Notes: generated by a model not told the origin, from the letters alone. Shown: positions 41,552 to 59,300, numbered from the stretch's first letter. The stretch: 64,000 nucleotides of DNA from Candidatus Eiseniibacteriota bacterium (GCA_031370785.1 JANMQY010000079.1:1-64000); one strand, 5' to 3'. Translations and numbers: made by a program.

Positions 41552-41583
41552 GTGTGTTCTCCGCCCCGGTTTGGCGCCGGCGC

Positions 41584-42447: not shown

Positions 42448-42449
42448 CC

Positions 42450-43334: not shown

Positions 43335-44310
43335 CGCGTCTTCCTCCGGTCGCGAGGTGGACGAGCAGGCGCGCCCCGGCGTTGACCACCAGCGTCAGCG
43401 CGAACAGCACCAGCGCCACCTCGATCAGCGCGGAAAGGTAGAGAGCGCCGGTCGCCTCGGTGAACTCGTTGGCGATCACGCTCGCCATGGTCGAGCCGGG
43501 CGCGAGCAACGAGGCCGAGATGCGATTGGTGTTCCCGATCACCATGGTCACCGCCATGGTTTCCCCGAGCGCGCGCCCGAGCGCAAGGATCACCGCGCCG
43601 AGGATTCCCGGCCTCGCGGCGTCGACCGCGACCGCGATCGCCTCGGCGCGGGTCGAGCCGAGCGCCAGCGCCGCTTCACGCAGCGAACGCGGCGTCGCGA
43701 GCAGGATCTCTCGCGAGATCGAGACCACCGTCGGCAGCACCATGATGGCGAGCACGATGCCCGCGTTGAGAACGCCGATGCCGAAGGGGGGACCCGTGAA
43801 CAGCGGCATGAACCCGAGGTGCTGGATCAGCCACGGCTCGACGGCGGTGCGCAGGACGGGCGCGAGCACGAACAGTCCCCACAGCCCGTACACGATGCTC
43901 GGGATCGAGGCGAGCAGATCGACCACGAACGCGACGGCTTCGCCGACCCGGGGCGGCGCCAGCTCGGAGAGGAACACCGCGGCCCCGATCCCGAGCGGCA
44001 CCGCGAGCAGCATCGCGATCGCCGAGGTCACCAGCGTGCCGTACACGTAGGGCAGCGCGCCGAACTTCTCCGCGACCGGATCCCAGGTGGTGGAGGTGAA
44101 GAACTGCCACCCGAAGGTGCGCAACGAGAGCTGCGCGCCCCGAGTGGACTCGAACACGATCAGCGCGGCGACCAGGAACACGAACAGGGCGCACGCGCCG
44201 AGCAGCCCCTGGTATGCGGTGTCGGCATGTGCCCAGGGCTTCGCCCGTGCGATCGGTCGGGTGAGCACCGGCAGATGGCTCGCGCCGGCCGTTCCGGTTC
44301 GGGAGGTCAC
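43315..44310 (-). CDS. pstC: Phosphate ABC transporter permease
   Basis: IPSIVYGLWG, GRALGETMAV, IANEF. Confidence 0.95.
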   Translation of the reverse strand: MTSRTGTAGASHLPVLTRPIARAKPWAHADTAYQGLLGACALFVFLVAALIVFESTRGAQLSLRTFGWQFFTSTTWDPVAEKFGALPYVYGTLVTSAIAMLLAVPLGIGAAVFLSELAPPRVGEAVAFVVDLLASIPSIVYGLWGLFVLAPVLRTAVEPWLIQHLGFMPLFTGPPFGIGVLNAGIVLAIMVLPTVVSISREILLATPRSLREAALALGSTRAEAIAVAVDAARPGILGAVILALGRALGETMAVTMVIGNTNRISASLLAPGSTMASVIANEFTEATGALYLSALIEVALVLFALTLVVNAGARLLVHLATGGRRDVAGTA

Positions 44311-44326
44311 CGGCTGTCCCGGGCGC

Positions 44327-45388
44327 TCACTGCAGCACCGGCCTGCCGTTCGCGGTCAGCTTGAGCAGGTTCGCATCGTTGATCTTGATCACCGCCTCGG
44401 GCAGCCGGGCGTAGTCCAGCGCCTCGGCCATGCTCTGTCCGTCGTGCATCGCCCAGCGGATGAATTCCGCGAGCGTGCGCGCTTTCTTCCCGTCCTTCAG
44501 GTCCCTGTAGACGAGCAGATAGGTGAGCCCCGCGATGGGGTAGGCGTCCGGGCTCGCCGAGTTCACGATTGGTGCGCGTACGTCCTTCGCAAGCGCCGCC
44601 TCCGCGCCGGCGACGGCCGCGGTGGTCGAAGCCAGCGAGGGTTCGACGAACTTGCCCGCCTTGTTGCGCAGCGCCGCGATCGGAAGCTGGTTCTGCTTCG
44701 CATACGCCAGCTCCACGTAGCCGATCGCGCCCGGAGATTGCCGTATCAGGCCGGCCACGCCCTCGTTGCCCTTGCCGCCGACACCGGCCGGCCAGCTCAC
44801 CGAGGTGTTGGCGCCGACCAGCTCCTTCCACTCGGTGCTGACCGACGAGAGGTAGGTGGTGAAGATGTTCGTCGTGCCGCTGCCATCCGACCGGTGCACA
44901 GGCAGGATCGGCACCGGAGGCAGCGCGACGCCGGGGTTGGCGGCGGCGATCGCCTTGTCGTTCCACACCGTGATCCGGCCGAGAGAGATTCCGGTCAGGG
45001 CCTCGGGCGTGAGCTGGAGCCGGCCCTTGAAGTCGGGAAGGTTGTAGGCGATCGCGACCGCCCCGGCGACGGTCGGGAAATGGATGATCGGGCGCGGCAG
45101 CTCGCGGAGCCGATCGTCCGAGAGCGCCGCGTCGCTGGCCCCGAAATCGACGGTGCCGGCCTTCACCTGCTGGATGCCCGCGCCGCTGCCGATCGACTGA
45201 TAGTTGATGCCCACCCCGGTCTTCTTCTGGTACGTGTCGAACCACTTCGAGTAGATGGGATAGGGAAAGGTCGCGCCTGCCCCGGTCAGATTCTGCGCCC
45301 GCGCACAACTGGCCGGACCGAGCGCCGCCAGCGCCAGGCCGAGGAGCGCCGCGACTCCGGTCACCTGTCGCTTCAATGTGCTTCTCAT
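44327..45388 (-). CDS. pstS: Phosphate-binding protein
   Basis: GAGATFP, GSGAG, DFGASD, RSDGSGTT, GNEGV, IGYVE. Confidence 0.97.
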   Translation of the reverse strand: MRSTLKRQVTGVAALLGLALAALGPASCARAQNLTGAGATFPYPIYSKWFDTYQKKTGVGINYQSIGSGAGIQQVKAGTVDFGASDAALSDDRLRELPRPIIHFPTVAGAVAIAYNLPDFKGRLQLTPEALTGISLGRITVWNDKAIAAANPGVALPPVPILPVHRSDGSGTTNIFTTYLSSVSTEWKELVGANTSVSWPAGVGGKGNEGVAGLIRQSPGAIGYVELAYAKQNQLPIAALRNKAGKFVEPSLASTTAAVAGAEAALAKDVRAPIVNSASPDAYPIAGLTYLLVYRDLKDGKKARTLAEFIRWAMHDGQSMAEALDYARLPEAVIKINDANLLKLTANGRPVLQ

Positions 45389-45411
45389 GGGTCTGGCCCT
45401 TTCGTTGAGTT

Positions 45412-46617
45412 TCACGACTGCGGCCTGCTGAACCGGTAGAACAGAGTGATGCGGGCCTGCAGGTCGTGGTGAGCGGGGGCGACCGCCGTGCCCTTCGCCA
45501 GATACTGAGTGGCCTCGACGTTGGGAATGACGTGGACGTCCTTGAACGGCTGCCAGTCGACACCCGCGATCCACAGCTGCGAATCCACGCGATTGCTCGC
45601 GCGACGATTTGGAATCCACTGGTCGAAGCGCGCCAGCAGCACGACCGTGGAGCTTAACGTCGCGCGGGCAAAACACGAGTACCCGCGCGGCTCCTCGGTC
45701 GGGGCCGGACCCTTTCGATTCAGCCGGTCGAGCGCCTCGAAACCGATCGCGACGCGCCTGAATTCATATCCCGCGAAGATCTTCCAGGTGGTCTGGTCGT
45801 TGTTGATCGCCGCGCTCTCGGGCTGGACCGGCTGCGCTCGGTCGAGGTTCACCCGCACGCCCTGATAGTCCGCGTACGGCTCGATGCGCAGAGCGCCCAC
45901 ACGCAGCGGCAGCGCGAAGTAGAGCTTCTTGAACCGATCGGTCTCCGGTTTCTGGCCGGTGCCATCGCCGATCGCGGCGATGTAGCCGACATGGTGATCC
46001 GGGTCGGCGAATCCCTTGAGCTCGAGGGCGAGGTCGGTCGCATTGCCGATCGAGCGGAAGTCGCCAATCGTCTTCTCGACCGCGCGGTATTGCCAGAAAT
46101 CCTCGGAGTTCTCCCACGTTGGAGTGACGATCATGCCGACGTACAGATCGGTGCGCGGCAGGACGCCCTTGGCCTGAAGGTAGGCCGAGCGCAGGGCGAC
46201 TCCGATCTTTCCGTCCGAGGTCAGGGACTTGCTGTCGGCTTCGAGTCGAAAGCGCGTGGCGAGGCGGACCGAAAGATCGTTGTCGAGCTGGAAGTAGACG
46301 CGGCGGATCTGAACGCCGTTCAATCCCTGGGTGATCGGTTTCTTTCCGTCGATGTTGGTCTGACCCAGGTCCGCGCCGTTCACGTCGTAGACGTGGCTGG
46401 GGTCACCGGAGAGATTGCCGTAGAGGTCACCGAACACCAGGCCGCTGATCCGTCCGCGCGGGAAGTCGGGGGGGGTCTGCGGAACCACGATCGCGATCGG
46501 GATCGGCGGCGGGGTCGAGGCGCTATCCGGCGAGGTCGAGCCGGTCGCGGACATCTGTGCGGAGCAGGGGACCGCAACGGTCAGCGCTGCGGCAATGAAC
46601 CAGGCGCGTCCTGTCAT
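45412..46617 (-). CDS. Outer-membrane porin, probably phosphate-selective (OprO/P-like)
   Basis: AAAGGAG RBS; signal peptide; beta-barrel pattern (IRRVYF, RFRLE, AYLQ, ARFD); first gene of the pst operon. Confidence 0.7.
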   Translation of the reverse strand: MTGRAWFIAAALTVAVPCSAQMSATGSTSPDSASTPPPIPIAIVVPQTPPDFPRGRISGLVFGDLYGNLSGDPSHVYDVNGADLGQTNIDGKKPITQGLNGVQIRRVYFQLDNDLSVRLATRFRLEADSKSLTSDGKIGVALRSAYLQAKGVLPRTDLYVGMIVTPTWENSEDFWQYRAVEKTIGDFRSIGNATDLALELKGFADPDHHVGYIAAIGDGTGQKPETDRFKKLYFALPLRVGALRIEPYADYQGVRVNLDRAQPVQPESAAINNDQTTWKIFAGYEFRRVAIGFEALDRLNRKGPAPTEEPRGYSCFARATLSSTVVLLARFDQWIPNRRASNRVDSQLWIAGVDWQPFKDVHVIPNVEATQYLAKGTAVAPAHHDLQARITLFYRFSRPQS

Positions 46618-46710
46618 GGCGCTCCTTTCGGGATGGAGTGTCGCTGCAACTGGAGTTTCGAGGGGTTCCACTTCGGCCGCCGCATGTCCCGGTAAAAGAA
46701 CACGGCGGGA

Positions 46711-46750
46711 GTTACGGCAGCGTTACGGCCGGATGAAATGCATGGAACGG
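46711..46750 (-). promoter_or_regulatory. Pho boxes (four 7-mers at 11-bp period)
   Basis: Minus strand CCGTTCC-N4-ATTTCAT-N4-CCGTAAC-N4-CCGTAAC, about 95 nt upstream of porin-pstSCAB-phoU. Confidence 0.7.
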
Positions 46751-46804
46751 CCGACAAGGCGCAGGGAATTCCACGGGGAGTCCGTCTGCCAGCGCCTCAG
46801 AGCC

Positions 46805-47146
46805 TCATTCTTCGTCGGTCCGGGCGCGTTCGCGTTTCCGGCGCGCGGCAACCCGCTTGGCGGCGAGGCGCGCCTCGACCGCGGAGCGGCTCGGCCGGGT
46901 CGCGTGACGTGGCTTGGGCTTGTGGGCGCGGCGCTGGATCTCGGCCCACACCCTTTCGAGTGCGGCTTCACGGTTGCGCAGCTGCGAGCGGCTCTCGGTG
47001 GCGATGCGGGTGATTCCGGTCGGGCGATGGCGCACGCGCACGCTCGACTCGGTCTTGTTCTTCTTCTGTCCGCCCGGCCCCGACGATTTGTAGGCAACGA
47101 CATCGCAGTCGCGGGCCAGGCGCTCGAGATGTTCCGGCAACGCCAT
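46805..47146 (-). CDS. ArfB-like peptidyl-tRNA hydrolase (RF-1 domain)
   Basis: SSGPGGQ, NKTESSV, RSQLRN; basic C-terminal tail KPRHATRPS. Confidence 0.85.
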   Translation of the reverse strand: MALPEHLERLARDCDVVAYKSSGPGGQKKNKTESSVRVRHRPTGITRIATESRSQLRNREAALERVWAEIQRRAHKPKPRHATRPSRSAVEARLAAKRVAARRKRERARTDEE

Positions 47147-47221
47147 GGCCGCATGCTAGCGCAGGAGCGGCCGCGTTTCGCTGCCGTTTGGTGAGCGTTT
47201 ACTTCCCGCCATGCCCGGCGA

Positions 47222-49672
47222 ATGACCTATTGCATCGAAGGTGCGAACTCGGGGATCATCGTGCGGTCGCCAAGCCGGCCCGGGTCTCACACCTCGGACC
47301 GGAGGCATGGCACGCGCGGGACGCGCGCCATCAGCCCCACAGGAAATCGAAGCGCGTCATCGTGCCATCGCAACCTGCCACGCCGGCGCGCCTCTTGGAG
47401 ATCCACCATCCCCCGTTCCTCCTGCCCCGCATCGGGCCCGGCATTCGCACGCCGCGTGGCCCGGATCTTCGCGATTGCCGTTTTTGGAGCACTCACGCTG
47501 TTCGGTAGCCCACGCGCGGGTAATCGCATCTGGACGGGCGTCGCGCCGCGGGCCCGGAGCATCGAGGCAATCGCGCGCGATCCTCTGAACCCTTCTCGCA
47601 TGTGGGTCGCCTCGTTCGGAGCCGGCGTGTACCGGTCGCTGGACGGGGGGGTGACCTGGAAGGCATATCGCTCGGGCCTGATCAACACCTTCGTGCGCTG
47701 TCTCGCAGTTCAGCCCCTGCATCCGGATTCGGTTCTGTGCGGCACTAACGACGGCGTGTTCCTCAGCGTGGACGGTGGCGTGACGTGGAAGGCTCTGCTC
47801 TCGACGACTCGATCGGTGCGCTCGCTCGCCATTCATCCGGTGCGGACCGGCGTCGTCTATGCGGCGCTGTACGGCGGCGGCGTCTACAAGTCGCTGAACG
47901 CGGGCGCGAGCTGGAGCGCGATCAACCTGGGCCTGGTCAACACCAACGTGCGTGACATCGCGATCTATCCGACGCGGCCCGAGACCCTGCTGGCTGCGAC
48001 CGGGACCGGCGGCGGAATTCATCGGAGCTTCAACGGTGGCTTGAGCTGGGCCCAGGTGCCGGACACTACGGCAACTCGGGGCGCGGCGGAGCAGGTGCAG
48101 TTCGACGCGCTCGACCCCTCGCGAATCTATGTCGCCGAGCTGGACCGCGGCGTGCTGCGCAGCACCGACGGCGGCACCAACTGGGGGCGCATCAACGGTG
48201 GCCTGTCGTCGTTCCGGGGACGATCGCTGGCGGTGGTGGACACGCTGCGCTGGTTCGGCACCGACGGCGCCGGCGTTTTCGTGACCTCGCTCAACGATAC
48301 GATGTGGCACCCCGTCGACATCGGGCCGACCGGCCGGGTCGTGGATGCGCTGTGGTCCTCGGCCGCGGAACCGTCCACCGCCCTCGCGGGTACTGACGGA
48401 GACGGGATGTTCCTCACTTCCGACCGCGGAGCGTCGTGGATCCCGGTAGACGGCGGCCTGATGTCCACTCAGGCGTTTTCACTCGCGGTGCGCCCATCCA
48501 CTCATGTCGTCTATGCCGGCACCGGCTTCGGCGATCAGTTCTGGCGGAGCGCGGACGTCGGCGCGTCGTGGACGCGCGCCACGCGATTGGTCACGAACAA
48601 TTCGGAACATGGTGTCGCACCGGATCCGCTGCTGGCCGGTCGAGTGTATCTGTCGGCGTATGGCTCGGGGGTGTACCGCAGTGATGACGATGGCGCGACC
48701 TGGCTGAATCCCGACAGCCTGAACGCAACGCTCACCAACCGGTTCGTCCGCCCGCTGCTGGTCTGGCCGGGCCAGAGCGAGCACCTGTTCGTCGGCACCG
48801 GCATCGGACCATTCGAGAGCACGGACGGAGGCGCGCAATGGGCTTCACGCGTCGGGAACCTGCCGGCGGGCTTCGGCGTGCACTCAATGGCGCTGGTGCC
48901 GGGGGTGCCGGCCACGTTGTATGTGGGGAACGACAGCGCCGGCGTCTACCGCTCGAACGATGGCGGCACGACCTGGAATCAAAAATCGGCCGGGCTGCTC
49001 TCGCCATTCGTTCGCGCCATCGTAGTGGACGCCGTCGATCCGCTCCGGGTATACGTCGCGACCGACTCGGGAGTATTTCGCAGCGTCGATGGGGGTAACG
49101 CGTGGGTCGCGGCGCGCGCCGGGCTCCCCGCGGGGCTGGTGGTGCGGGCGCTGGTGCAGGATCCGGCGCACGGAGCGCTATTCTGCGGCGTCTATGGAGG
49201 CGGAGTGTTCGAGAGCGTCGATGGTGCCGGCACCTGGCTGCCGGTCTTCGGGCAGCAGGGGCTCAGTGATCTGCACGTACGCGCGCTTGCGGTGGACACC
49301 GGCCAGCGCGCCCTCTATGCCGGCACCGAGAACGGTGTCGCCTCGGTGACCTTCTACGACGCCCTCGACGTGCCGCGGCCGGTTGCGGGATCCAGGCTTA
49401 GCCTTTCGGCCTCGCCCAACCCTTCGTCCGGGTCCGGACCCGAGCTGCGCTTCGCAATGGCACGTGCCGGCTCCGCGCAGCTTTCGATCTACGACACGGC
49501 CGGGCGCCGGGTGCGGGTGCTCGCCGACGCGTGGCTCGAAGCCGGGGAGCACGAGGCGCGCTGGGACGGCCGGGACGCCCGCGGCTTTCCCGCGCCGGCC
49601 GGTCTCTATTTCGCGCGGCTGGTCGTACCCGACGGAGTCCGTGTCGTGCGTCTCGCGCGCCTCATGAGGTGA
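47222..49672 (+). CDS. Secreted BNR/VPS10-type beta-propeller protein with C-terminal FlgD-Ig/T9SS-like domain
   Basis: More than 10 Asp-boxes (SxDGGxxW); C-terminal IYDTAGRRV...WDGRD...AGLYFARL. True start may be GTG 47456. Confidence 0.85.
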   Translation: MTYCIEGANSGIIVRSPSRPGSHTSDRRHGTRGTRAISPTGNRSASSCHRNLPRRRASWRSTIPRSSCPASGPAFARRVARIFAIAVFGALTLFGSPRAGNRIWTGVAPRARSIEAIARDPLNPSRMWVASFGAGVYRSLDGGVTWKAYRSGLINTFVRCLAVQPLHPDSVLCGTNDGVFLSVDGGVTWKALLSTTRSVRSLAIHPVRTGVVYAALYGGGVYKSLNAGASWSAINLGLVNTNVRDIAIYPTRPETLLAATGTGGGIHRSFNGGLSWAQVPDTTATRGAAEQVQFDALDPSRIYVAELDRGVLRSTDGGTNWGRINGGLSSFRGRSLAVVDTLRWFGTDGAGVFVTSLNDTMWHPVDIGPTGRVVDALWSSAAEPSTALAGTDGDGMFLTSDRGASWIPVDGGLMSTQAFSLAVRPSTHVVYAGTGFGDQFWRSADVGASWTRATRLVTNNSEHGVAPDPLLAGRVYLSAYGSGVYRSDDDGATWLNPDSLNATLTNRFVRPLLVWPGQSEHLFVGTGIGPFESTDGGAQWASRVGNLPAGFGVHSMALVPGVPATLYVGNDSAGVYRSNDGGTTWNQKSAGLLSPFVRAIVVDAVDPLRVYVATDSGVFRSVDGGNAWVAARAGLPAGLVVRALVQDPAHGALFCGVYGGGVFESVDGAGTWLPVFGQQGLSDLHVRALAVDTGQRALYAGTENGVASVTFYDALDVPRPVAGSRLSLSASPNPSSGSGPELRFAMARAGSAQLSIYDTAGRRVRVLADAWLEAGEHEARWDGRDARGFPAPAGLYFARLVVPDGVRVVRLARLMR

Positions 49673-50856
49673 TGCGGGGCATGCTCGTTCCGGGATTTCT
49701 GACGCTCGGCCTCGTGGCGTACGGCCTGTGGGAGTCGCGCTCCCACGCGGCCATGCTGTCCCGCATTCCGACCCGCGTCCACGTCAACGGCACGCGCGGA
49801 AAGTCCTCGGTGACCCGGCTCATCGCCGGTGGATTGCGCATGGGTGGCGTGAGGACTTTCGCCAAGACCACCGGCACCATGGCGCGCATGATTCGTCCCG
49901 ACGGCGCAGAGGTGGACGTGTATCGAGTCGGCCGGCCCAACATCATCGAGCAGACACGCATCATACGCCGCGCGGTGGAAGCGGACACCCACGCGCTGGT
50001 CGTCGAGTGCATGGCGGTCTCACCCGAGCTACAACCGCTCTCCGAGCTGCGGCTGATCCGCAGCACGGTCGGCGTCATCACTAATTGCCGCGCCGACCAC
50101 CTTGACGTGATGGGACCGACCACCGACGACGTCGCGCGGGCGCTGGCGCAGACCTGCCCGCTGCGTGGACACCTGTTCACCGCGGAGCGCGATCGCGCGT
50201 GGATCCTCGAATCGGTCGCGCGCGATCGCGGCACGGATCTGCACGTGATCGATTCTGCGGACGTCACGCCCGCCGAGATGGCGTCTTTCTCGTACATCGA
50301 GCATGCAGAGAACGTCGCGCTGGCCCTTGCGGTGTGCACGCACCTCGGGGTGTCGCGCGAGGCGGCGCTGGCGGGCATGCAGGTGGCGACTCCCGACCCG
50401 GGCGTGCTTCGCCGGTTCGTGGTTCACGTCGGGGGCAGAACGGTCGAATTCGTGAATGCGTTTGCCGCCAATGACCCGGACTCCACCCTGCTCATCTGGG
50501 AGCGCCTCGGACTCGAAGTGCCCCGCGCCGGAATCCAGCGAATCGTTCTGGCCCACTGCCGCCCCGATCGGATACAGCGCTCGGGCCAGATCGCGCAACT
50601 GGTCGCCACCCGACTGAAGTCGGATCACGTCGTGCTCTGCGGAGAGGATACCGATCTGGTGGCGTTTCACGCGGTCAAGGCGGGACTGCCGCGCGAGCGA
50701 ATCAGCAATCTCGGAGGGCGCGGCGCGGAAGCGGTGTATGAACATGTTCTCGATCTCGTGAAGGAGAAGGGCATCGTGGTCGGAATCGGCAATATCGTGG
50801 GACTGGGGGAGGAAATCGTGCTCCATTTCAGAAACCGGATGGTGCGTGGTGGTTGA
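49672..50856 (+). CDS. pgsB: Poly-gamma-glutamate synthase
   Basis: HVNGTRGKSSVTRL, AKTTG, VECMA, DHLDVMG, FAANDPDST. Confidence 0.95.
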   Translation: MRGMLVPGFLTLGLVAYGLWESRSHAAMLSRIPTRVHVNGTRGKSSVTRLIAGGLRMGGVRTFAKTTGTMARMIRPDGAEVDVYRVGRPNIIEQTRIIRRAVEADTHALVVECMAVSPELQPLSELRLIRSTVGVITNCRADHLDVMGPTTDDVARALAQTCPLRGHLFTAERDRAWILESVARDRGTDLHVIDSADVTPAEMASFSYIEHAENVALALAVCTHLGVSREAALAGMQVATPDPGVLRRFVVHVGGRTVEFVNAFAANDPDSTLLIWERLGLEVPRAGIQRIVLAHCRPDRIQRSGQIAQLVATRLKSDHVVLCGEDTDLVAFHAVKAGLPRERISNLGGRGAEAVYEHVLDLVKEKGIVVGIGNIVGLGEEIVLHFRNRMVRGG

Positions 50857-51298
50857 ACAGGCGATCGGCCTCGGTCTGGTGATCAGCCTGATCTTCTCGG
50901 AGACTCTCGGACTGGCGGCCGGAGGCATGGTGGTGCCCGGATACCTCGCGCTCACCATCCACGAGCCGCTGCGCATCCTCGGCACCGTGCTGATCGCGCT
51001 GCTCACCTTCGGCGCGGTGAGGTTCCTGTCGCTCTATACGCTCATCTATGGGCGGCGACGCATCGTGGTCGCCGTGCTCATCGGATTCGTATTCGGCGCA
51101 CTGTCGCGCAACCTGCTGTTCTTCCGCTGGCACGAGACTCCCGTCGACATTCGCACCATCGGATACGTCATCCCCGGCCTGATCGCCAACTGGATGGAGC
51201 GCCAGGGCGTGCTACAGACCCTGTGCGTCATGACCACCACCGCGGTTCTGGTGCGCCTGCTGTTGATGCTGATCAACGGCGGAACCCTCATCCGATGA
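50846..51298 (+). CDS. pgsC: Poly-gamma-glutamate biosynthesis membrane protein
   Basis: AGGMVVPGYLAL, IYGRRR, IGYVIPGLIAN. Confidence 0.95.
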   Translation: MVVEQAIGLGLVISLIFSETLGLAAGGMVVPGYLALTIHEPLRILGTVLIALLTFGAVRFLSLYTLIYGRRRIVVAVLIGFVFGALSRNLLFFRWHETPVDIRTIGYVIPGLIANWMERQGVLQTLCVMTTTAVLVRLLLMLINGGTLIR

Positions 51299-52422
51299 GT
51301 CTGGCCCGCGCCTCCACTCCCGCCCTCGCCGCGCTTGCGCTGCTGTCGCTCGTCGTCTATGCCGTCGCCGAGCGCTCGGTGACTCCCGTGCACGCCGAGG
51401 CTTATCGCATCAAGCTCGACGCCATGCGCGTGATGCAGCGGGCGGAGCATGCGGTGCTCGAGGCCAAGCGCGCCCGCGGCATCTCGATCGATGCGAAGAA
51501 CGATCCGGTTCCCACCGGACTGATCGGCCCGCAATTCACTTTGATCACCACGGATCGCGGCGCACAGTCCGCCAAGAGTCTTGCCACGCATTCGAGTTTC
51601 GCGGCCGCCGCCGCGCAGATGATGCTGCAGGGCGGGGTTCGTCGGGGGGACCTGGTGGCGGTCGGCGTGACCGGGTCGCTTCCCGGGCTCAACGTCGCGG
51701 TGTTCTCGGCCTGTCGCGCAGTGGGCGCGGAGCCGGTCGTGATCACTTCGGCAGGAGCCTCGATGTTCGGCGCGACCGATCCCGAGATGACCTGGCTCGA
51801 CATGGAGTCGGCGATCGTCGCGCGCGGCCTGTGGCCGGACGGCTTCCGATCGATCGCTGCCTCGCTCGGTGGCGGCGGCGACGCCGGGCGCGGGCTGTCC
51901 CCGACCGGGCGCCAGCTGCTGCGCGATGCCATCGACCGCAATCATGTTCGATTCCTCGATCCACCCACCGTGTTCGAGGCGGTCCGCGAGCGCGTCGCTC
52001 TCTACGACTCGGTGGCCGCCGCCCGGGGCAGGCCGATCCGGATGTACGTCAACGTCGGAGGCGGCGTGGCGAGTCTCGGCGGCGCGCAGAATGGACGGTT
52101 GATCCCGGCCGGCCTCAGTCCGCGCCTCACCACTCGCAACTATCCGAATCGCGGCGTGATCAACGTTCTCGGCGAACGGCGCATTCCCGTGATTCATCTG
52201 CTGCAGGTGGAGAAGCTGGCACGCGAGTTCGAGATCACGGACGCCGCGGGCGAGCCGGTCAAGCCCGGCCGCGGGCTGCTGTTCGTGAAGTATCGCTACA
52301 ACCTCGCGATCGTGGCAGGGGCGGCGGTGCTGGTCCTCTTCGCCAACCTGTTCGTGCTGCGTCACGACATTCGCCAGAAGCTGCTCGGCCAGCCCCATCC
52401 GGAAAGGATTCCGCTCGCATGA
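51295..52422 (+). CDS. pgsW: Poly-gamma-glutamate system protein (PgsW-type)
   Basis: TGLIG...ITTDRG...AK, TGSLPGLN, GASMFGA, SLGGGGD, YVNVGG; N- and C-terminal TM helices; follows pgsC. Confidence 0.8.
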   Translation: MSLARASTPALAALALLSLVVYAVAERSVTPVHAEAYRIKLDAMRVMQRAEHAVLEAKRARGISIDAKNDPVPTGLIGPQFTLITTDRGAQSAKSLATHSSFAAAAAQMMLQGGVRRGDLVAVGVTGSLPGLNVAVFSACRAVGAEPVVITSAGASMFGATDPEMTWLDMESAIVARGLWPDGFRSIAASLGGGGDAGRGLSPTGRQLLRDAIDRNHVRFLDPPTVFEAVRERVALYDSVAAARGRPIRMYVNVGGGVASLGGAQNGRLIPAGLSPRLTTRNYPNRGVINVLGERRIPVIHLLQVEKLAREFEITDAAGEPVKPGRGLLFVKYRYNLAIVAGAAVLVLFANLFVLRHDIRQKLLGQPHPERIPLA

Positions 52423-53330
52423 AGGCGTCGTACCTGTTCCTGCTCGTGTTGTTGCTCGCATCAGCTCCCGACCCGCGCTCTCCAGGCGTGCAGGCCGCGG
52501 GCTGGGTCACCATCGAGAAGCTGACGGACGCGAAACCGGTTCACGTGCTGGTGCGCGGCCAGGACCGGGTCTACTTCCGGATCACGCCCCAGAGGCCGCT
52601 CAACGTCGCAATCGATGGGCCGGTCCGCGTGCGCGTCGTGACCCGGGTCGAGCTGCGCGGCGCCGGGGACACGATCGCGACCTACAAGGTCCGCGCGGTC
52701 GAGAACGGTCGCGAGCTCGAGATTCTCGACACCGAGAGCTCCGCCGCTTCCGAGACCCGGCTGGCCGACGGCCCGGGTGTGCTCGGCAAGAGCCGGCGCA
52801 TGACGTTCGATGTGCCGGCCGGCCGCCATCGCATCCAGCTCGCGCTCGAAGGCACCGCGTCCGCGCTGGTCAGGCTGCAGCTCTCCCGTGAAAAGATCGG
52901 AGACGAGGCCATGGTCTCGCTCACCCCGACCGAAGCGCCGCGCAGCGTCTCGGTGATCGAGGGCGAGAAGACCGTGCCGTACTACAGCGTGCTCCCCGGC
53001 CAGCCGGTGCGGCTTCGCGTGATCGGACCGACGACGCTCGAGCTCATGACCCGCCTCGATTTCGACGCCACCATGCGCGGGACACAGACCTATCGAGTGC
53101 GGGTGACGGGGCGTGGAAAGGTGCTTCGTGAAGCGGAGTTCAAGACGACGAAGGCCACGACTGCCACTTACGCCAATCTGCCGGATCGCGTGCCTTCGAA
53201 ATTCGACCGCGTGGTCGTTCGTCTGGGAGGGGGCGTGCATGAGCTCGCCATCGAGCTGCTCTCGCCCGTTCGCGGGTCGGCCGAGATCCGCGCGCGCATC
53301 CCGCAACCATCCGTTGGCAACGAGGAATGA
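52419..53330 (+). CDS. Exported hypothetical protein with two duplicated beta-rich domains
   Basis: Signal peptide; internal repeat (YF..TP.RPL.V.IDGP..VRVVTR / YY...PGQPV.LRVIGP..LELMTR); ATGA overlaps at both ends. Confidence 0.75.
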   Translation: MKASYLFLLVLLLASAPDPRSPGVQAAGWVTIEKLTDAKPVHVLVRGQDRVYFRITPQRPLNVAIDGPVRVRVVTRVELRGAGDTIATYKVRAVENGRELEILDTESSAASETRLADGPGVLGKSRRMTFDVPAGRHRIQLALEGTASALVRLQLSREKIGDEAMVSLTPTEAPRSVSVIEGEKTVPYYSVLPGQPVRLRVIGPTTLELMTRLDFDATMRGTQTYRVRVTGRGKVLREAEFKTTKATTATYANLPDRVPSKFDRVVVRLGGGVHELAIELLSPVRGSAEIRARIPQPSVGNEE

Positions 53331-54481
53331 TGGGAAACCCAGAGGTGCGCCGAAACCGCCGTCTCAGGACCGCAGCCACCGCCGTTCTCGCCGCACTCAC
53401 GCTCGGCACGGCCGACGCCGGAGCGGCGCAGAGAGTGAATCTCACACTCGGGCTCGGAGCGATCTACGACACGAACCTGCTGAAGTACTCGGCCGACCAG
53501 CGCACCCTTTTCGAGAGCGGCACTCGGCCCGACCGGTTCTCGATCCATTCGCTGGATGACCTGACGTGGAATCCGTTCGTCGCGCTCGCCTGGGATGCCG
53601 ACGCGGGGCGCGGCCGCCACCACATCCTGCGCCTTAAGAGTGAGGGGGAGTTCCACGATCGCAACCCCACCGCGGACTTCCACTCGATCAGTGCCGGCTG
53701 GCGCGAGACCTGGCGCGGCGGGCGCAGATTCTCGGTGGGATATTACGGACTGCCGCACTACTATCTGCGGCAGCTCGTCGACGAAGACTACGTGACGCCG
53801 TTTCCCGGGCTGGCGCTCCATCGTCGCGCGCAATTCGATCTGCAGATCGCCTCCACGTCGTGGGGCCAGCGCATCGCCCGGAATACCGACACCGAGCTCG
53901 CATACCAGTTCGAAAACCGGCGCTACGTGCCGGACTTTCGCGAGCGAGACTCGAAAACCCACCAGGGCGAGCTGACCTTCGGTTTCACGGGGCTGCCGGA
54001 TCGCGGCTCGATCGATGTTTCGGGAGGGTGGCGGGTGAGCAACGCGAAGGGCGTGGATGGTGACGAAGTTGCGGGCGCCCCTCCCGACGATCAGGACCTG
54101 ACCTATCACGGTCCGATCGCATCGGTGCGCGGTCGTGCCGAGCTCGGGCGAACCGCGCGCTGGCGGGTGATCGGCGATGCCGGCTACCAGTTCGGGAGCC
54201 GCACGTACGATTCGAAGGTGCCTGCCGATCGCTTCCACTTCGGGCGCCGCGATGCGCTCAATGCGGTCGAGTTCGGGCTGCGCGCCCAGTTTCGCCCTCA
54301 CCTGAGCGCCCGCGGATTCTTCCGTCACGAGTCCAACAACGCACACCACGGTGCCAACGTGGCGTCCACGACCGACCTGGGAAGCTACTCGCAGAATCAG
54401 GTCGGCCTGGTCGTGGACTGGTCGGGCGCAATCTGGCGGAGTCAGCGCGCCACGGCCGCCGAGCCGGACACGACGAATTGA
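53327..54481 (+). CDS. Outer-membrane beta-barrel protein of the PGA operon
   Basis: Signal peptide ending AGA; LGLGAIYDTN opening strand; many aromatic-girdle strands. Confidence 0.7.
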   Translation: MMGNPEVRRNRRLRTAATAVLAALTLGTADAGAAQRVNLTLGLGAIYDTNLLKYSADQRTLFESGTRPDRFSIHSLDDLTWNPFVALAWDADAGRGRHHILRLKSEGEFHDRNPTADFHSISAGWRETWRGGRRFSVGYYGLPHYYLRQLVDEDYVTPFPGLALHRRAQFDLQIASTSWGQRIARNTDTELAYQFENRRYVPDFRERDSKTHQGELTFGFTGLPDRGSIDVSGGWRVSNAKGVDGDEVAGAPPDDQDLTYHGPIASVRGRAELGRTARWRVIGDAGYQFGSRTYDSKVPADRFHFGRRDALNAVEFGLRAQFRPHLSARGFFRHESNNAHHGANVASTTDLGSYSQNQVGLVVDWSGAIWRSQRATAAEPDTTN

Positions 54482-55167
54482 TGCCTGCTCCTCGCCTCCG
54501 CCCGGGTCTGTTGCCGACATTGATCGCGGCCGCAGGGATCGCCCTGTTCGTAACGGGCTGCCATACCGCGCGCATCCTCGGGCCGCCGCCGCCGTTGCGC
54601 GCCGCGTCGGCGTCCAGCTATGCGGTGGATGTGGAGTTTGCGGAGCCGCTCGATCGCGCGAGCGCCGAAGACCCATCGCACTATGCGCTGGTCGCCGTCT
54701 CCGGTGGCGCCGCCGCGGTCATCCAGAGCGCGACCCTGGTGGACACGCTCTACGGCCGAGTCGTACAGCTCCTGATCCCGGACTGGCTCACCACCAATCC
54801 CGATACCACGGAGTTCGACCTCACCACGAGCGGCGTGATCGCGCTGGACGGGAGATCGACCGGCTCACGCACGGTGCGCTTCGCTACCGGGCTCTCCTAT
54901 CGCGCGCCGGTGCGCGCGCTGCTGGGCGCGCATTGCAGCTCGTGTCACGGGGCTTCACGCGCCGACGGAAGCTATCGCACCGACAGCGAGGCGGAGCTGG
55001 TGGGCGGCGGCAGAAATGCGACGCCCAATCTCATCGCCGGCGATCCCAACAGCCTGCTGCTGGTGAAGTGCCGGCCGGGCAACTCGATGTTCAATCGTGG
55101 CAACCTCTCCTTCCTCGACTTCGAGATCCTTCTCAACTGGGTCGTGAGTTACTCGGCGCGTTCGTAG
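54481..55167 (+). CDS. Lipoprotein with Ig-like domain and monoheme cytochrome c domain
   Basis: Lipobox-like FVTGC; VDVEFAEPLD Ig-like motif; CSSCH; distal Met (NSMF) and WV ending. Confidence 0.75.
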   Translation: MPAPRLRPGLLPTLIAAAGIALFVTGCHTARILGPPPPLRAASASSYAVDVEFAEPLDRASAEDPSHYALVAVSGGAAAVIQSATLVDTLYGRVVQLLIPDWLTTNPDTTEFDLTTSGVIALDGRSTGSRTVRFATGLSYRAPVRALLGAHCSSCHGASRADGSYRTDSEAELVGGGRNATPNLIAGDPNSLLLVKCRPGNSMFNRGNLSFLDFEILLNWVVSYSARS

Positions 55168-55270
55168 CGCTTCTGCGCCGCCGTACCCACTTGTGGCCGC
55201 TTCGCGCCCGCCGTTAGACTGCCGCCGCTAAGGCCGCAGGCCCTGTCGTCACGTCCATTCCGGAGGTCTC

Positions 55271-56671
55271 ATGCTCACCGCATCCCGCGTGGCGCCGATC
55301 ATCGTGCTCGCGCTCGCGGGCGCGCTGCTCTCGGCTCCGGATGCCGTGGCGAAGAAGCGCCCCGCGCCCCGTCCGGCCGCCCCGGTGACGGCATCCTCGG
55401 CGCTCGCGCTCCGCGTGCAGCGCGTCACGCTCGGCAACGGACTCACTGTGCTGCTTCACGAGGACCACAGCGTGCCGACGGTCGCGTTCTGGCAGTGGTA
55501 TCGCGTCGGCTCGCGCAACGAGCGGCCGGGCATCACCGGGATCTCGCACTTCTTCGAACACATGATGTTCAACGGATCGAAGAACGTCCCGCCCAAGGAG
55601 TACGACCGGATCCTCGAATCGAACGGCGGCTACTCGGACGCGTTCACCGACTACGACATGACCGCGTACTTCGAGGAGATCGCATCGGACCGGCTGGGAG
55701 TCGTGCTGCGCCTCGACTCCGACCGCATGGCGGCGCTCTCGCTCCTGCCCGAGCAGCTCAAGAGCGAGATCGACGTGGTGAAGGAGGAGCGGCGGTTCCG
55801 CGTGGACGACGACATCCGGGGCATGCTCGACGAGCCGCTGTGGGCGACCGCGTTCGAGGCCTCGCCCTATCACTGGCCGGTGATCGGCTGGATGGGCGAC
55901 CTCAACCGGATCACGCGCGAAGACATGGTCGAGTACTTCCGGATTCACTACGCGCCGGACAACTGCATTCTCGCGCTGGTCGGGGATTTCGATTCGAAGG
56001 CCGCGCTCGACAGCATTCGGACGTACTTTGGCTCGATTCCGCGCCAGCCGGCGCCGCCCGAGCCGGTGGACTCGGAGCCCGAGCAGAGAGGCGCTCGCCA
56101 CCTCGAGGTGCACTATCCGGCGCAGAACGTCACGTTCCTCGCGGGTTACAAGGCGCCGGCCGCGAAGAGCGCCGATGCGCCGGTGCTCGATTTACTGCGC
56201 TCGATTCTCGGCGACGGCGAGTCGTCCCGGCTGCACCAGGCGCTGGTGTACGAGGGGCAGATGGCGATCGAGGCCTCCTGCGCGTACCAGGCCCGCATTG
56301 CTCCTGGCCTCATGGAATTCACCGTCGAGCTGAAGCCGGGCCGCAGCGCACAGGAAGGGTTGAAGGCGCTCGACTCGGTGTTGACGCACCTGTCGGACCA
56401 GGGCCCGAGCGAGCGCGAGCTCCAGAAGGCGCGCAATCAGCTCGAGGCGGCGGTGGTGCGCTCGCTCAAGACCAACAACGGCGTGGGCCAGCAGCTCGGC
56501 TACTTCGAGCACGTGTTCGGGGACTACCGCACACTGTTCCAGACCGTGGAGCGCTATCGCACGGTCAGCGCGGAGGACTGCCGGCGCGTGGCGAAGCAGG
56601 TATTCGATGCGAAGCGGCGCACGGTGGCGGTGCTCGTGCCCGACAAGGGCGCCGAGGATGCCGCACCATGA
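55271..56671 (+). CDS. M16B zinc peptidase, catalytic subunit
   Basis: LGNGL, VGSRNE, HFFEHMMF (HxxEH), EERR, YHWPVIG; signal peptide. Confidence 0.93.
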   Translation: MLTASRVAPIIVLALAGALLSAPDAVAKKRPAPRPAAPVTASSALALRVQRVTLGNGLTVLLHEDHSVPTVAFWQWYRVGSRNERPGITGISHFFEHMMFNGSKNVPPKEYDRILESNGGYSDAFTDYDMTAYFEEIASDRLGVVLRLDSDRMAALSLLPEQLKSEIDVVKEERRFRVDDDIRGMLDEPLWATAFEASPYHWPVIGWMGDLNRITREDMVEYFRIHYAPDNCILALVGDFDSKAALDSIRTYFGSIPRQPAPPEPVDSEPEQRGARHLEVHYPAQNVTFLAGYKAPAAKSADAPVLDLLRSILGDGESSRLHQALVYEGQMAIEASCAYQARIAPGLMEFTVELKPGRSAQEGLKALDSVLTHLSDQGPSERELQKARNQLEAAVVRSLKTNNGVGQQLGYFEHVFGDYRTLFQTVERYRTVSAEDCRRVAKQVFDAKRRTVAVLVPDKGAEDAAP

Positions 56672-58050
56672 GCGCGCGCCGGATCGGAATCGCGTTGCTG
56701 GCGGCGGGTCTGGTTCACTTCGCCCCGCCGGCGAGCGCGGCGGCGGTCGCGTTGCCGCCGGCCGTGCGCGTCACGCTCAAGAACGGGCTGGTCGTGATCG
56801 TCAGCCCCACCCACCGCCTGCCGCTGGTCGACTTTCGGCTGGTGGCCCGCGCCGGATCGAGCAGCGATCCCACGGGCAAGGAAGGCGTCGCCGGGCTCAC
56901 CGCGGATCTTCTGACCCAGGGCGCTGGAGCGCGCGGCGCTCGCCAGCTCGCCGAGGACATCGCGTTCATCGGAGGCACGCTCGAGGCGGGCGCGCTCGCC
57001 GAGCAGCTCGTGGTCACCTGCGAAGTGCTGAAGAAGGACATGGCGACCGGGCTCGAGCTGCTCCACGACGTGCTGGTCGCGCCCGCGTTTCCCGCCGAGG
57101 AGTTCGCGCGCAAGAAGGACGAGGCGCTGAGCGCGATCGTGGCCGCGCGGGATGATCCTTCGTCGGTGGCCGATCGCGCACTGCTTCCCTTCCTGCTTGG
57201 CACGGGCCCGCTCGCGCATCCGGTCTCGGGCTGGGAGAAATCGGTCGGCTCGCTCACTCGCGACGACGTCACCGCGTTCCACCGCCGGTTCTTGACGCCC
57301 GACAACGCGATCCTCGCCGTGGTCGGGGACGTGGATCCGCAGGCGATGATCGCCCTGCTCCAGCGCACCTTCGCCGACTGGAAGCCGAGCGGCCAGAAGC
57401 GGACCCTGGCCGCCGACATGCCGGCGCGCGCCGCAGGGGTGCAGCTGCGCATCGTGAGCAAGCCCGAGGTGACCCAGACCCAGATCCGGCTCGCCACGCT
57501 CGGCGTCGCGCGCAATCATCCGGACTATTTCCCGATCCAGGTCGCGAACACGATTCTCGGCGCCGGATTCACTTCGCGGCTGGTCAACGAGATCAGAGTC
57601 GTGCAGGGACTGAGCTACAGCATCTCGAGCGGCTTCACCATGTATCGCAACGCCGGCACGTTCGAGGTGAACACGTTCACCAAGAACGAGACCCTGCGCA
57701 AGACCATCGACGAGACCCTGCGCGTGATGCGCCAGTTCATCTCGCAGGGCCCCAGCGATGAGGAAGTGGCAAAGGCGAAGCGCTACCTGACCGGGCTCTA
57801 CCCGCTCGGGCTGCAGGCGCCCGACGATCTCGCGGCCGCGCTGGTCAACGTCGAGTTCTACGGGCTCGATCCGCAGTACATCGCGAACTACGACGCGAGA
57901 GTCAACGCGGTCACCCCGGACGACGTTCGCCGCGCGCTGCGCTCGTACTTCGACGTGGACAATCTCAGGATCCTCGTGGTCTCCGACCCGGCGACGGCGA
58001 AGGGCGCGCTCGAAGGGCTCGGACCCATCGAGGTGACCGCGATCCCGTGA
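56668..58050 (+). CDS. M16B peptidase, non-catalytic subunit
   Basis: LKNGL; lacks HxxEH; SRL..EIR...GLSY. Confidence 0.9.
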   Translation: MSARRIGIALLAAGLVHFAPPASAAAVALPPAVRVTLKNGLVVIVSPTHRLPLVDFRLVARAGSSSDPTGKEGVAGLTADLLTQGAGARGARQLAEDIAFIGGTLEAGALAEQLVVTCEVLKKDMATGLELLHDVLVAPAFPAEEFARKKDEALSAIVAARDDPSSVADRALLPFLLGTGPLAHPVSGWEKSVGSLTRDDVTAFHRRFLTPDNAILAVVGDVDPQAMIALLQRTFADWKPSGQKRTLAADMPARAAGVQLRIVSKPEVTQTQIRLATLGVARNHPDYFPIQVANTILGAGFTSRLVNEIRVVQGLSYSISSGFTMYRNAGTFEVNTFTKNETLRKTIDETLRVMRQFISQGPSDEEVAKAKRYLTGLYPLGLQAPDDLAAALVNVEFYGLDPQYIANYDARVNAVTPDDVRRALRSYFDVDNLRILVVSDPATAKGALEGLGPIEVTAIP

Positions 58051-59300
58051 GCGAAGCGCCCGCTTCGGACGGGTCCGGCGGGCCATCCGCGAATCCCGCG
58101 CGCGCGAAGGGCCGCGGCCCAGCGGGAGTCACCCGCAACGTCGTCGCGCTGGGTATGGTTTCCTTGCTCACCGACGTCTCGACCGAGATGATCCTGCCGG
58201 TGCTGCCGCTGTTTGTGACCGGTGTGCTGCATGCGTCGGTCACCAGCGTCGGTGTGATCGAGGGCGTGGCCGAGTGCACCGCCGCGATGCTGCGCCTCGC
58301 CTCGGGGTGGCTCTCCGACCGGATCGGCCGGCGCAAGCCATTCCTGATGTTCGGCTACGGAATCTCGACCGTGGCCAAGGGCGCGATGGCGCTGGCCGCT
58401 TCCTGGCCCGCGATCCTCGCCCTGCGCTTCGCCGATCGCGTCGGCAAGGGCCTGCGCAATCCGCCGCGCGACGCGTTGATCGCCGACTCGGTCGAGCCGC
58501 AGTATCTCGGGCGCGCGTTCGGACTCCACCGCGCCATGGACACGCTCGGCGCCGCGCTCGGGCCGCTGGTCGCCTTTGCGATGCTGCAGCGGAACCCGAC
58601 TGGATTCCGCGACATCTTCGGCTTGAGTGCGGTGCCCGCGCTGCTCTCGATCGTCGTGCTCGGCATCTTCGTGCGCGCGCCGCGCCACGTCGCACGCCGC
58701 AGTACGGGCGGGTTCCGGGGCGAGGTCAAGGCGCTGGGCGCGCCATTCATGCGCTTCCTCGCGGTGGATGCGGTCTTTCAGCTCGGCAACAGCAGCATGG
58801 CCTTCGTGCTGCTGCGCTCGCGCGACGTGGGCCTCAACGCCGGCCAGGTGGTGCTCGGCTACCTCGGCTACAACCTGGTCTATGCGCTGCTGTCGTGGCC
58901 GCTGGGCGCGCTCTCGGATCGCATCGGCCGGCGTCCGCTGCTGCTCGCCTCCTATGCGCTCTATGCAGGCGCATACGCGCTGCTCGCCTTTGGTCTGACC
59001 CGCTGGGCAGCGCTCGGCGCGCTCGCGCTGCTCGGGGTGCAGAGCGCGCTCATGGAGGGGCAGGCGCGCAGCCTGATCGCCGACTTCGTGCCGGAAGATC
59101 GGCGCGCGACGGCGTACGGCGTTTATTACACCGTGGTCGGGGCAGCCCTGCTGCCGGCGAGCGTGCTGGCCGGAGTGCTGTGGGATCGGGTCGGCGCCGC
59201 GGCGACGTTCGGGGTCGATGCCGCGCTGGCCGCTGTGGCGGCGCTCCTCTTCCTGACCGTGCTGCCCTCGCGTCACGAGCTGCGAGACCGCCATGGTTAA
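58047..59300 (+). CDS. MFS transporter
   Basis: [35 protein letters not shown]. Confidence 0.92.

Follow-up and report, generated by a model that had tools for sequence, protein, structure and literature searches.

A poly-gamma-glutamate synthase operon with a candidate outer-membrane export module in Candidatus Eisenbacteria

The synthesis and anchoring of poly-gamma-glutamate (PGA) are described for Bacillus (PMC13721041, PMC3815933; these and the other papers given by PMC number are quoted from excerpts). CapsuleFinder treats CapB and CapC as the mandatory components of a PGA synthase system, and capABC alone yields PGA in E. coli (both PMC5542703). Among diderms, PGA production is reported for Fusobacterium nucleatum (PMC3815933, citing Candela 2009), and for Francisella capBCA the excerpts of PMC3925715 and PMC4688374 give no demonstrated PGA capsule. 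Synthase-dependent systems consist of a synthase, a periplasmic scaffold and a β-barrel of 16–18 strands; the EpsX barrel has 18 strands and is paired with an OPX protein (both PMC9601211). The DUF560/SLAM barrel has 14 strands (PMC8406197).

The window analysed here is a stretch of 64,000 nucleotides from a Candidatus Eisenbacteria genome (GCA_031370785.1, JANMQY010000079.1:1-64000). It contains seven open reading frames, all on the + strand and each running into the next:

47456..49672, + strand: secreted β-propeller of the BNR/sortilin type (Pfam PF15902, PF02012, PF13860)
49672..50856, + strand: pgsB/capB, ATP-dependent gamma-glutamyl ligase with a Mur-ligase fold (TIGR04012)
50846..51298, + strand: pgsC/capC, multi-pass inner-membrane partner (TIGR04011, PF14102)
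51295..52422, + strand: pgsW (TIGR04332), W in short
52419..53330, + strand: X, signal peptide followed by two homologous jelly-roll (CBM-like) domains (AF2 model)
53327..54481, + strand: Y, predicted 14-stranded outer-membrane β-barrel (AF2 model)
54478..55167, + strand: Z, lipoprotein whose C-terminal part carries a c-type heme motif (conserved Cys28 and CxxCH; weak PSCyt1 match)

The overlaps are 1 nt (propeller/pgsB), 11 nt (pgsB/pgsC) and 4 nt at each of the other junctions (pgsC/pgsW, pgsW/X, X/Y and Y/Z), which agrees with the seven overlapping same-strand genes of the first-pass annotation. The secreted propeller was also correctly recognized by its families, but its start had been placed at 47222, probably 78 codons too early. 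The true start is probably GTG 47456: the signal peptide sets in at this codon, and upstream of it, at 47341 and 47401, the frame is broken by indels in a ~95%-identical relative. The C-terminus of the propeller is a FlgD-Ig/T9SS-like sorting domain (the TIGR04183 match is weak), and SprA is encoded in the host genome. The propeller is likely a type IX-secreted surface accessory protein in a variable slot, which, among 63 loci, holds a propeller in 23, a C25 peptidase in 20 and other genes in 20.

PgsB scores 431.5 bits against NCBIfam TIGR04012 (cut-off 222.7) and contains a P-loop-like GTRGKSS, PgsC scores 127.7 bits against TIGR04011 (cut-off 96.45) and has four hydrophobic regions, and PgsW scores 270.6 bits against TIGR04332 (cut-off 100), so that all three initial gene identifications hold. 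Both components required by CapsuleFinder are present, CapB/PgsB above its family cut-off and CapC/PgsC adjacent to it with the 11-nt overlap, and the operon likely makes PGA. Similar to Bacillus PgsBCA(E) and B. anthracis CapBCADE, pgsB and pgsC are adjacent, coupled and above equivalog cut-offs. Unlike these systems, the operon has no PGA_cap (capA) or GGT (capD) gene and no recognizable capE, a small and divergent gene, and it adds PgsW, X, Y, a lipoprotein and a T9SS-tailed protein. The same pgsB–pgsC–pgsW core is found in other diderms (Cetobacterium record L167, Francisella capBCA by product name and F. nucleatum by review).

The lack of capA and capD, as originally claimed, is true of the operon and of the window, neither of which contains a CapA-domain or GGT gene, but not of the genome. 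Away from the operon there are two CapA-domain genes above the cut-off (contigs C22 and C133) and one GGT gene (C133), and PF09587 and PF01019 matches in the host genome occur only on contigs C22, C133 and C74. The CapA-domain gene of L001 and the GGT of L004 lie in unrelated contexts, and both families are common in control genomes (7/14 for CapA-domain, 8/14 for GGT). The unlinked genes were therefore rejected as specific evidence for or against another export route.

PgsW has two hydrophobic segments by hydropathy (residues ~3–29 and 334–357) on either side of a basic domain, which is probably periplasmic. Its net charge is +12 (the median of relatives is +7, 29 rows). It displays no homology to CapA domains (hhalign 0.1%), has no sequence match in the PDB and no Pfam family among 29 members, and was not found in 14 control genomes, B. 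subtilis included. Since Francisella capA bears the PgsW product name (PMC5362203), PgsW itself may fill the ‘CapA’ slot.

Neither Pfam nor NCBIfam has a family that matches X. As the first-pass annotation proposed, it is an exported protein with a duplicated domain: a signal peptide is present, and its halves are homologous to one another (hhalign 99.65%). The predicted fold is all-beta (AF2 pLDDT 90.5) and matches CBM/BcsB-like domains with Z-scores of 8–10; the BcsB-like matches, at 8.2–8.3, are at a common level. The net charge is +9, equal to the median across 53 rows, and relatives number 1270 representatives at E<=0.001. The model suggests a probable periplasmic polymer guide. A search of open-access literature found no description of either X or Y.

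The outer-membrane barrel assigned to Y is reproduced by structure prediction as a 14-stranded barrel (AF2 pLDDT 89), which begins at residue 33, directly behind the signal peptide, and has no TPR, helical repeat or plug domain. In AlgE, the charge of the lumen is complementary to the polymer. The basic lumen that had been expected for Y is not clearly found: by a crude alternation method that uses no coordinates, 17 of the residues at predicted inward-facing strand positions are basic and 17 are acidic (family mean 19.8 basic and 16.0 acidic of 110 by the same method), and the median net charge is +1. The best fold match is CymA (Z-score 24.1, rmsd 3.3, 290 aligned), followed here by OmpG (21.1), both import channels and the closest folds, while the BcsC and PgaA barrels score 14.5. 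At the profile level, EpsL (TIGR03014) matches 10/58 Y members at E<=0.05 (best E 1.3e-10) and BBP2_2 (PF10082) matches 3/58 (best E 1.9e-08); Y of the window itself matches neither model. These weak to moderate matches in some homologs suggest that Y is distantly related to the EpsL/BBP2 barrels of polysaccharide loci, a group to which EpsX can be compared, except that the operon encodes no OPX protein.

Like Alg8/AlgK/AlgE, PgaCD/PgaA and BcsAB/BcsC, the operon combines a polymerase, a periplasmic partner and an outer-membrane barrel. It differs in that the polymerase is an amide ligase (PgsB, with its Mur-ligase fold) and not a processive glycosyltransferase, in that no TPR scaffold is present (X is all-beta, Y has no helical repeat and no TPR family is matched), and in that Y has 14 strands, not 16–18, with a lumen that is not clearly basic.

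The conservation of this arrangement was surveyed in the best 80 of 561 loci by likeness to this PgsW, a sample biased to this subtype. In these 80, X directly follows pgsW in all 75 loci with room for it. After X (71 loci), Y is next in 61 and upstream in 2, a TonB-dependent-type barrel stands in its place in 5, and neither is found in 3. X and Y accompany pgsBCW in records of Eisenbacteria, Bacteroidota, Ignavibacteria, Zixibacteria, Krumholzibacteria, Nitrospirota, Fibrobacterota and Acidobacteriota, so their proposed recurrence as partners across several diderm phyla is borne out. Among 201 Eisenbacteria genomes, 65 carry pgsW, of which 63 have X and 62 have Y. Furthermore, in some lineages X is fused to PgsW (L011, L050, L128, P0172, P0255, P0282, P0213 and P0166, the last being the L011 protein) or to the barrel (X-domain–barrel fusions in L048, L049, L128, L134 and L154), and 8 family-f13 genomes have a second X match within the Y frame. 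The fusions tie W, X and Y together and predict which of the proteins touch. PghP, a gamma-PGA hydrolase, is present in 8 X-bearing loci, and CapA domains in 5.

Y co-occurs with pgsBCW, as anticipated, but is not exclusive to it: 22 of 84 Y-bearing genomes have no pgsW, and none of the 22 matches pgsB (5 of these Y matches are weak, E > 1e-10). In two Eisenbacteria loci, Y paralogs beside a GT2 gene and a β-helix protein, one of them with a chondroitinase-B-like gene, nest within the pgs-linked clade of a quick tree, which places the barrel in a synthase-like polysaccharide locus as well.

The position of X next to W and of Y after X, the fusions, the PghP loci, the EpsL/BBP2 matches, the Y paralogs at GT2 loci and the charge of X and W together make it somewhat probable, slightly beyond an even chance, that W–X–Y is a synthase-dependent conduit for PGA export across the periplasm and outer membrane. 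Judging from family membership, PgsB would ligate glutamate with ATP and PgsC would pass the chain across the inner membrane. The basic PgsW domain and the basic jelly rolls of X would then pass it on, as charge, fold and W–X fusions suggest, a handover comparable to that by BcsB and TPR proteins in exopolysaccharide systems. X would dock on Y, to which it is fused elsewhere, and the chain would leave via Y. Least certain is the part of the lipoprotein behind Y and of the T9SS-tailed protein, which might act at the surface as interchangeable accessories, capping the barrel and binding or trimming the polymer. The trans-envelope conduit first put forward is supported by co-occurrence, the barrel prediction and the fusions; a basic lumen is not clearly supported, Z and the propeller are not core parts, and Y is not confined to pgs loci. 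Also against a conduit are the Y-bearing genomes without pgsW, Y followed by a lipoprotein away from pgsBCWX, the 14 strands, the import-like folds of Y, pgsBCW loci without X/Y, the sufficiency of capABC in E. coli and, as far as the excerpts go, the negative Francisella capsule case.

The import-like folds raise an alternative that appears unlikely: surface hydrolases would release gamma-glutamyl oligomers, Y would take these up as an import or salvage channel, and the polymer would exit elsewhere. It would account for the plugged TonB-dependent-type barrel in Y's place (5 loci, some Ignavibacteria/Chlorobiaceae records among them), which is followed by PghP in L085, L086, L097 and L116, and for the release of PGA by E. 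coli without X/Y (PMC5542703, excerpt). In addition, the TRAP-large, AstE-like and GGT genes of the X/Y-less loci described below resemble a degradation and uptake set. However, translational coupling links Y to the synthase, fusions join X domains to Y and X to PgsW, Y paralogs lie behind GT2 genes, those Y relatives with family matches hit EpsL/BBP2 models and not sugar-porin families, and tblastn finds no PghP, TRAP, AstE or DUF6305 match in the host genome.

Z was predicted to be a lipoprotein with an Ig-like and a cytochrome c-type part, the putative Ig-like half being N-terminal, and a lipobox-like Cys28 and the CxxCH motif are indeed conserved in 17/17 aligned homologs. Full-length Z matches occur in 19/201 genomes, all with pgsW. 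Behind Y, a lipoprotein is found in 37/53 loci (14 Z, 23 LVIVD-type), non-homologous between lineages. Z is, by these comparisons, a lineage-specific occupant of a ‘lipoprotein slot’, and neither Z nor the propeller belongs to the core module; both are variable. The slot recalls SLAM (type XI), where a 14-stranded barrel is likewise followed by a lipoprotein gene, and Y could serve the lipoprotein as a SLAM-like translocon or pair with it as barrel and lid, with only an indirect tie to PGA. ESM Atlas neighbours of Y carry SlipAM (scores 0.94–0.96, low recognition), conserved Y residues gather at strand ends and loops, an LVIVD-FGE lipoprotein follows Y in 4/4 inspected genomes that have Y and pgsBCWX on separate contigs, and four Y copies without pgs genes have a cytochrome c lipoprotein behind them. 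This reading is nonetheless improbable, a little more so than salvage: PF04575 (SlipAM/DUF560/SLAM) matches 0/58 Y sequences at E<=0.05, Y has no N-terminal TPR, no TbpB-like cargo occurs among scanned neighbours, and 16/53 loci keep Y without such a lipoprotein. No solved SLAM chain is among the 50 best fold matches of Y, which is still compatible with kinship.

A third alternative concerns the product. B, C and W might add short gamma-glutamyl chains to an acceptor in the envelope, be it a lipoprotein, LPS or T9SS cargo, which X and Y would deliver or display instead of free polymer. PgsW could be an enzyme, having many invariant Gly/Ser/Asp/Glu/Asn residues and no match to a known fold, and the C25 gingipain-family proteins of the upstream slot (20/63 loci) bear T9SS-like tails. 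One member of the C25 family, PorU, acts as a transpeptidase. The Francisella case, where capA/FTT_0807 has the PgsW product name and no demonstrated capsule in the excerpts, points the same way. Against this stand PghP, a hydrolase of polymeric gamma-PGA, in X-bearing loci, the reported PGA of F. nucleatum and the modelled resemblance of X to a polymer-binding module, and we rate glutamylation as poorly as salvage.

The preferred export reading makes W, X and Y candidates for PGA passage over the outer membrane of diderms, and they could help Gram-negative production hosts to secrete PGA more effectively. The presence of pgsW in 65/201 genomes suggests widespread PGA-like polymers in Eisenbacteria, and such polymers may also be common in sediment and sludge Bacteroidota relatives.

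X and Y, proposed as a diderm PGA module, span several phyla but are missing from a whole subtype. Six diderm pgsBCW loci without X/Y carry DUF6305 (6/6), TRAP-large (5), AstE-like (5) and GGT (4) genes; in genome-wide searches, X is not found in 5/5 and Y in 4/4 of these genomes, and G036 is likewise without Y. Their PgsW falls outside the X/Y group (SH-aLRT 94, in a quick tree with long branches), which suggests that diderm pgsBCW loci divide into an X/Y and a DUF6305/TRAP/GGT type. A broader claim, tentative and just short of even odds, is that W–X–Y would be the first outer-membrane route dedicated to secreting a non-ribosomal polypeptide polymer: a variant of synthase-dependent export, 14-stranded and free of TPR, with a swappable barrel (TonB-type, GT2 locus) and interchangeable lipoprotein caps (here cytochrome c), and one of two diderm PGA types.

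An M16 peptidase pair (55271–58050) was rejected as part of the system, being 103 bases downstream and adjoining in 1/20 loci. A promoter and terminator scan gave no signal above chance. In one study, two RNA runs give even coverage of 45000–59000, on 15–45 kb contigs of the ~95%-identical relative; this looks like DNA carry-over and was rejected as evidence of transcription. A SlipAM genome search gave no match anywhere, controls included, which makes it uninformative. Of the taxon labels, the ‘Clostridia’ record L102 falls with Bacteroidales and comes from a genome that carries Omp85 genes, and the ‘Hyphomicrobiales’ record is an Eisenbacteria genome.

The genome that carries the window is 3.44 Mb long and 100% complete, and its named relatives belong to Candidatus Eisenbacteria. 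As the first-pass annotation had described, seven ORFs follow one another on the same strand, each overlapping its successor, and all seven with their overlaps are seen in the window:

47456 (probable start) to 49672, +, propeller protein with a FlgD-Ig/T9SS-like domain at its end
49672 to 50856, +, pgsB, passing the NCBIfam cut-off
50846 to 51298, +, pgsC, passing the NCBIfam cut-off
51295 to 52422, +, pgsW (W), passing the NCBIfam cut-off
52419 to 53330, +, exported tandem jelly-roll protein (X), no family match at cut-off
53327 to 54481, +, predicted outer-membrane barrel (Y), no family match at cut-off
54478 to 55167, +, heme-motif lipoprotein (Z), weak cytochrome c match only

The probable start codon of the propeller gene is GTG 47456, the position at which the signal peptide of the protein also begins; a relative of ~95% identity has +1 and -2 indels 5' of this codon. 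SprA is present in the genome above cut-off. Cys28 and the CxxCH motif are kept in 17 of 17 Z homologs. An exported pair of M16 peptidase subunits (55271 to 58050, +) lies 103 bases 3' of Z and is adjacent in genome G005 too.

X and Y accompany pgsBCW well beyond this genome. Among 201 genomes of the phylum, which as kin are not independent of one another, 65 have pgsW, 67 have X and 84 have Y; the pgsW-bearing genomes have X in 63 of 65 cases and Y in 62 of 65. Full-length Z occurs in 19 genomes, every one with pgsW. A wider sample took the 80 loci, out of 561 in GTDB, whose PgsW is most like the window's, and so is biased toward this subtype. X directly follows W in all 75 of them that leave 1 kb or more for it. 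Past X, the 71 loci with room have Y next (61), Y upstream of pgsB (2), a TonB-dependent-type barrel (5) or neither barrel (3). The proposal that X and Y are partners of pgsBCW across diderm phyla is thus borne out in this sample, whose loci are titled Eisenbacteria, Bacteroidota, Ignavibacteria, Chlorobiaceae, Zixibacteria, Krumholzibacteria, Nitrospirota, Fibrobacteraceae, Fermentibacteria and Acidobacteriota. Title-based phylum counts are to be taken with care, because some titles (L061, L084, L102 and L080: Dormiibacterota, Hyphomicrobiales, Clostridia, Omnitrophota) conflict with the sequence grouping; the L084 genome and the Eisenbacteria genome G191 give an identical match. Fusions join the same partners: PgsW and X share a single frame in L011, L050, L128 and four more database proteins, and in L048, L049, L128, L134 and L154 X-like domains and the barrel, in that order, form one reading frame.

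The flanking slots are more variable. Of 53 loci, 14 have Z 3' of Y and 23 an LVIVD-type lipoprotein, 37 in all, while 16 have neither; the slot 5' of pgsB holds a propeller in 23 of 63 loci, a C25 peptidase in 20 and other genes in 20. Eight X-bearing loci contain PghP gamma-PGA hydrolase genes, the best indirect sign, from gene neighbourhood, that the operon product may be gamma-PGA (poly-gamma-glutamate, PGA). In L085, L086, L097, L099 and L116 a TonB-dependent-type barrel within about 3 kb past X replaces Y; in four of them it is directly 3' of X and followed by PghP, and in L099 PghP precedes it. Y was not found in G205, the one genome searched among these loci.

A second type of pgsBCW locus has a different gene set. 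When 301 genomes were drawn evenly from the phylum of G204, 8 had pgsW, 7 of them new; three of the seven have X and Y and four have neither. In the phylum of G203, pgsW occurs in just 2 of 201 genomes. The four G204-phylum genomes that lack X and Y, together with G036 (Eisenbacteria) and a replicon of Cetobacterium, provide six loci of this type (L167, L171-L175; genomes listed: G358, G434, G438, G418, G036). They contain DUF6305 (6/6), a DctM-like TRAP large subunit (5), an AstE-like peptidase (5) and GGT, the capD-type family (4). None of the X/Y-type loci has DUF6305, the TRAP large subunit or the AstE-like gene, and only one (L089) has GGT in its flank. Genome-wide, X was not found in the five X/Y-less genomes searched for it, nor Y in the four searched for Y. 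In a quick tree of 36 PgsW sequences with long branches, the two types stand apart (SH-aLRT 94). Given these near-exclusive gene sets and the split in the PgsW tree, X/Y appears to be one alternative and the GGT set the other. The idea that the module stands in for CapA/CapD/CapE survives to that extent, but diderm pgsBCW sometimes occurs without X/Y.

In the operon capA and capD are unrecognisable, as first noted, but the genome has two CapA-domain genes and one GGT on other contigs, in unrelated surroundings. Among control genomes, 7 of 14 match the CapA-domain family and 8 of 14 the GGT family. Some X/Y-type loci (L122:3316-6318, L169:1700-4759, L043, L053, L054) also encode large proteins with a CapA (PGA_cap) domain close to pgsB. 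The L122 protein carries a T9SS tail, which suggests a surface enzyme role for this domain.

PgsW is hydrophobic at both ends and basic in the middle. No relative was found in PDB or Pfam, and hhalign against CapA domains (0.1%) gives no homology. The predicted fold of X (pLDDT 90.5) consists of two beta-sandwich domains with mutual homology (99.65%); against carbohydrate-binding modules and BcsB they reach Z-scores of 8-10 at most, as is usual for such folds. X has a net charge of +9, is positive in 96% of 53 aligned rows, and belongs to a family of 1270 representatives at E<=0.001.

The barrel call for Y agrees with its predicted structure, 14 strands beginning directly after the signal peptide (pLDDT 89). 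The closest structural match is CymA (Z-score 24.1, rmsd 3.3, 290 aligned), followed by OmpG (21.1), with the BcsC and PgaA barrels at 14.5. Y may instead import gamma-Glu oligomers, but we consider this unlikely. A crude strand-alternation count places 17 basic and 17 acidic residues on the inner face, and by this test the basic lumen once expected is not supported. At E<=0.05, 10 of 58 aligned Y sequences match EpsL, 3 match BBP2_2 and none matches SlipAM.

Y also occurs away from pgs loci. It is found in 22 genomes that lack a pgsW match, none of which has a match to pgsB. Twenty Y loci apart from pgsBCWX include the following:

L147-L149, L151: Y directly 5' of the genes for a cytochrome c lipoprotein and cytochrome oxidase subunit II (4 of 20), in genomes mostly without pgsW
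L152:3749-10352, L153:5941-10672: Y after GT2 and a beta-helix protein (2 of 20), with an extra chondroitinase-B-like gene in L152
L155-L157, L159-L161: Y paralogs of one clade (6 of 20), without pgs genes, after a FlgD-tailed protein with CarboxypepD repeats, which an ABC exporter precedes in most cases

An unnamed gene of ~350-450 aa lies nearby in three of the last group. Two further loci are glycosyltransferase clusters with a lipoprotein, four have an LVIVD-FGE lipoprotein 3' of Y in genomes whose pgsBCWX is on a different contig, and the remainder are one X-X-Y fusion standing alone and one locus at a contig end. The L152 and L153 clusters are candidate synthase-dependent polysaccharide loci with a 14-stranded barrel. 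The GT2- and cytochrome-linked copies nest within the Eisenbacteria pgs-linked clade in a quick tree of 78 rows (support 96-99), which shows the barrel to be portable. This fits a general polymer pore, as in the GT2 case, but a lipoprotein partner too. In the latter vein, Y could be a SLAM-like translocon for the lipoprotein. ESM Atlas neighbours of Y, at low recognition, include SlipAM clusters, and Y fails the family and domain tests for SLAM (as described in part of PMC8406197); we rate this reading as improbable, slightly more so than the importer.

We lean toward W-X-Y being an export path for the polymer made by PgsBC. What is directly established is the gene content, the coupling, the fusions and the predicted folds; polymer, contacts and direction we infer. 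PgsBC would polymerise glutamate and pass the chain through the inner membrane, from where PgsW and X, both basic, may guide it across the periplasm, and Y would let it exit, with the lipoprotein and T9SS-tailed protein as putative exchangeable surface accessories. By gene rule the operon qualifies as a CapB+CapC PGA system. Its likeness to synthase-dependent secretion is one of analogy: judged by the definition in an excerpt of PMC9601211, it lacks the glycosyltransferase and the TPR and has a 14-stranded barrel, and so falls outside that class.

The Y copies away from pgs loci count against the W-X-Y path. So does a result in E. coli, where PGA was obtained from capABC alone, according to an excerpt of PMC5542703. 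F. nucleatum is listed among PGA producers in part of PMC3815933. Francisella capA FTT_0807 is tabulated under 'poly-gamma-glutamate system protein' in an excerpt of PMC5362203; to judge by this product name, which equals that of TIGR04332, it is probably a PgsW. Passages of PMC3925715 and PMC4688374 state that a PGA capsule has not been demonstrated in Francisella, and report CapA as an inner-membrane protein and suggested export aid. A system that glutamylates an envelope acceptor is another possibility, about as doubtful as import through Y. Export along W-X-Y would belong to an already known kind of PGA system, but the module is real, conserved and apparently undescribed: in line with the initial view of such a Gram-negative apparatus as uncharacterised, the open-access papers searched yielded no description of X or Y.

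Upstream of the operon, a phosphate uptake cluster (40859 to 46671, -) comprises a porin-like gene, pstS, pstC, pstA, pstB and phoU, named from translations read by eye and a weak Porin_O_P match. It is followed by a Ppx/GppA-like gene at 38671 to 40455.
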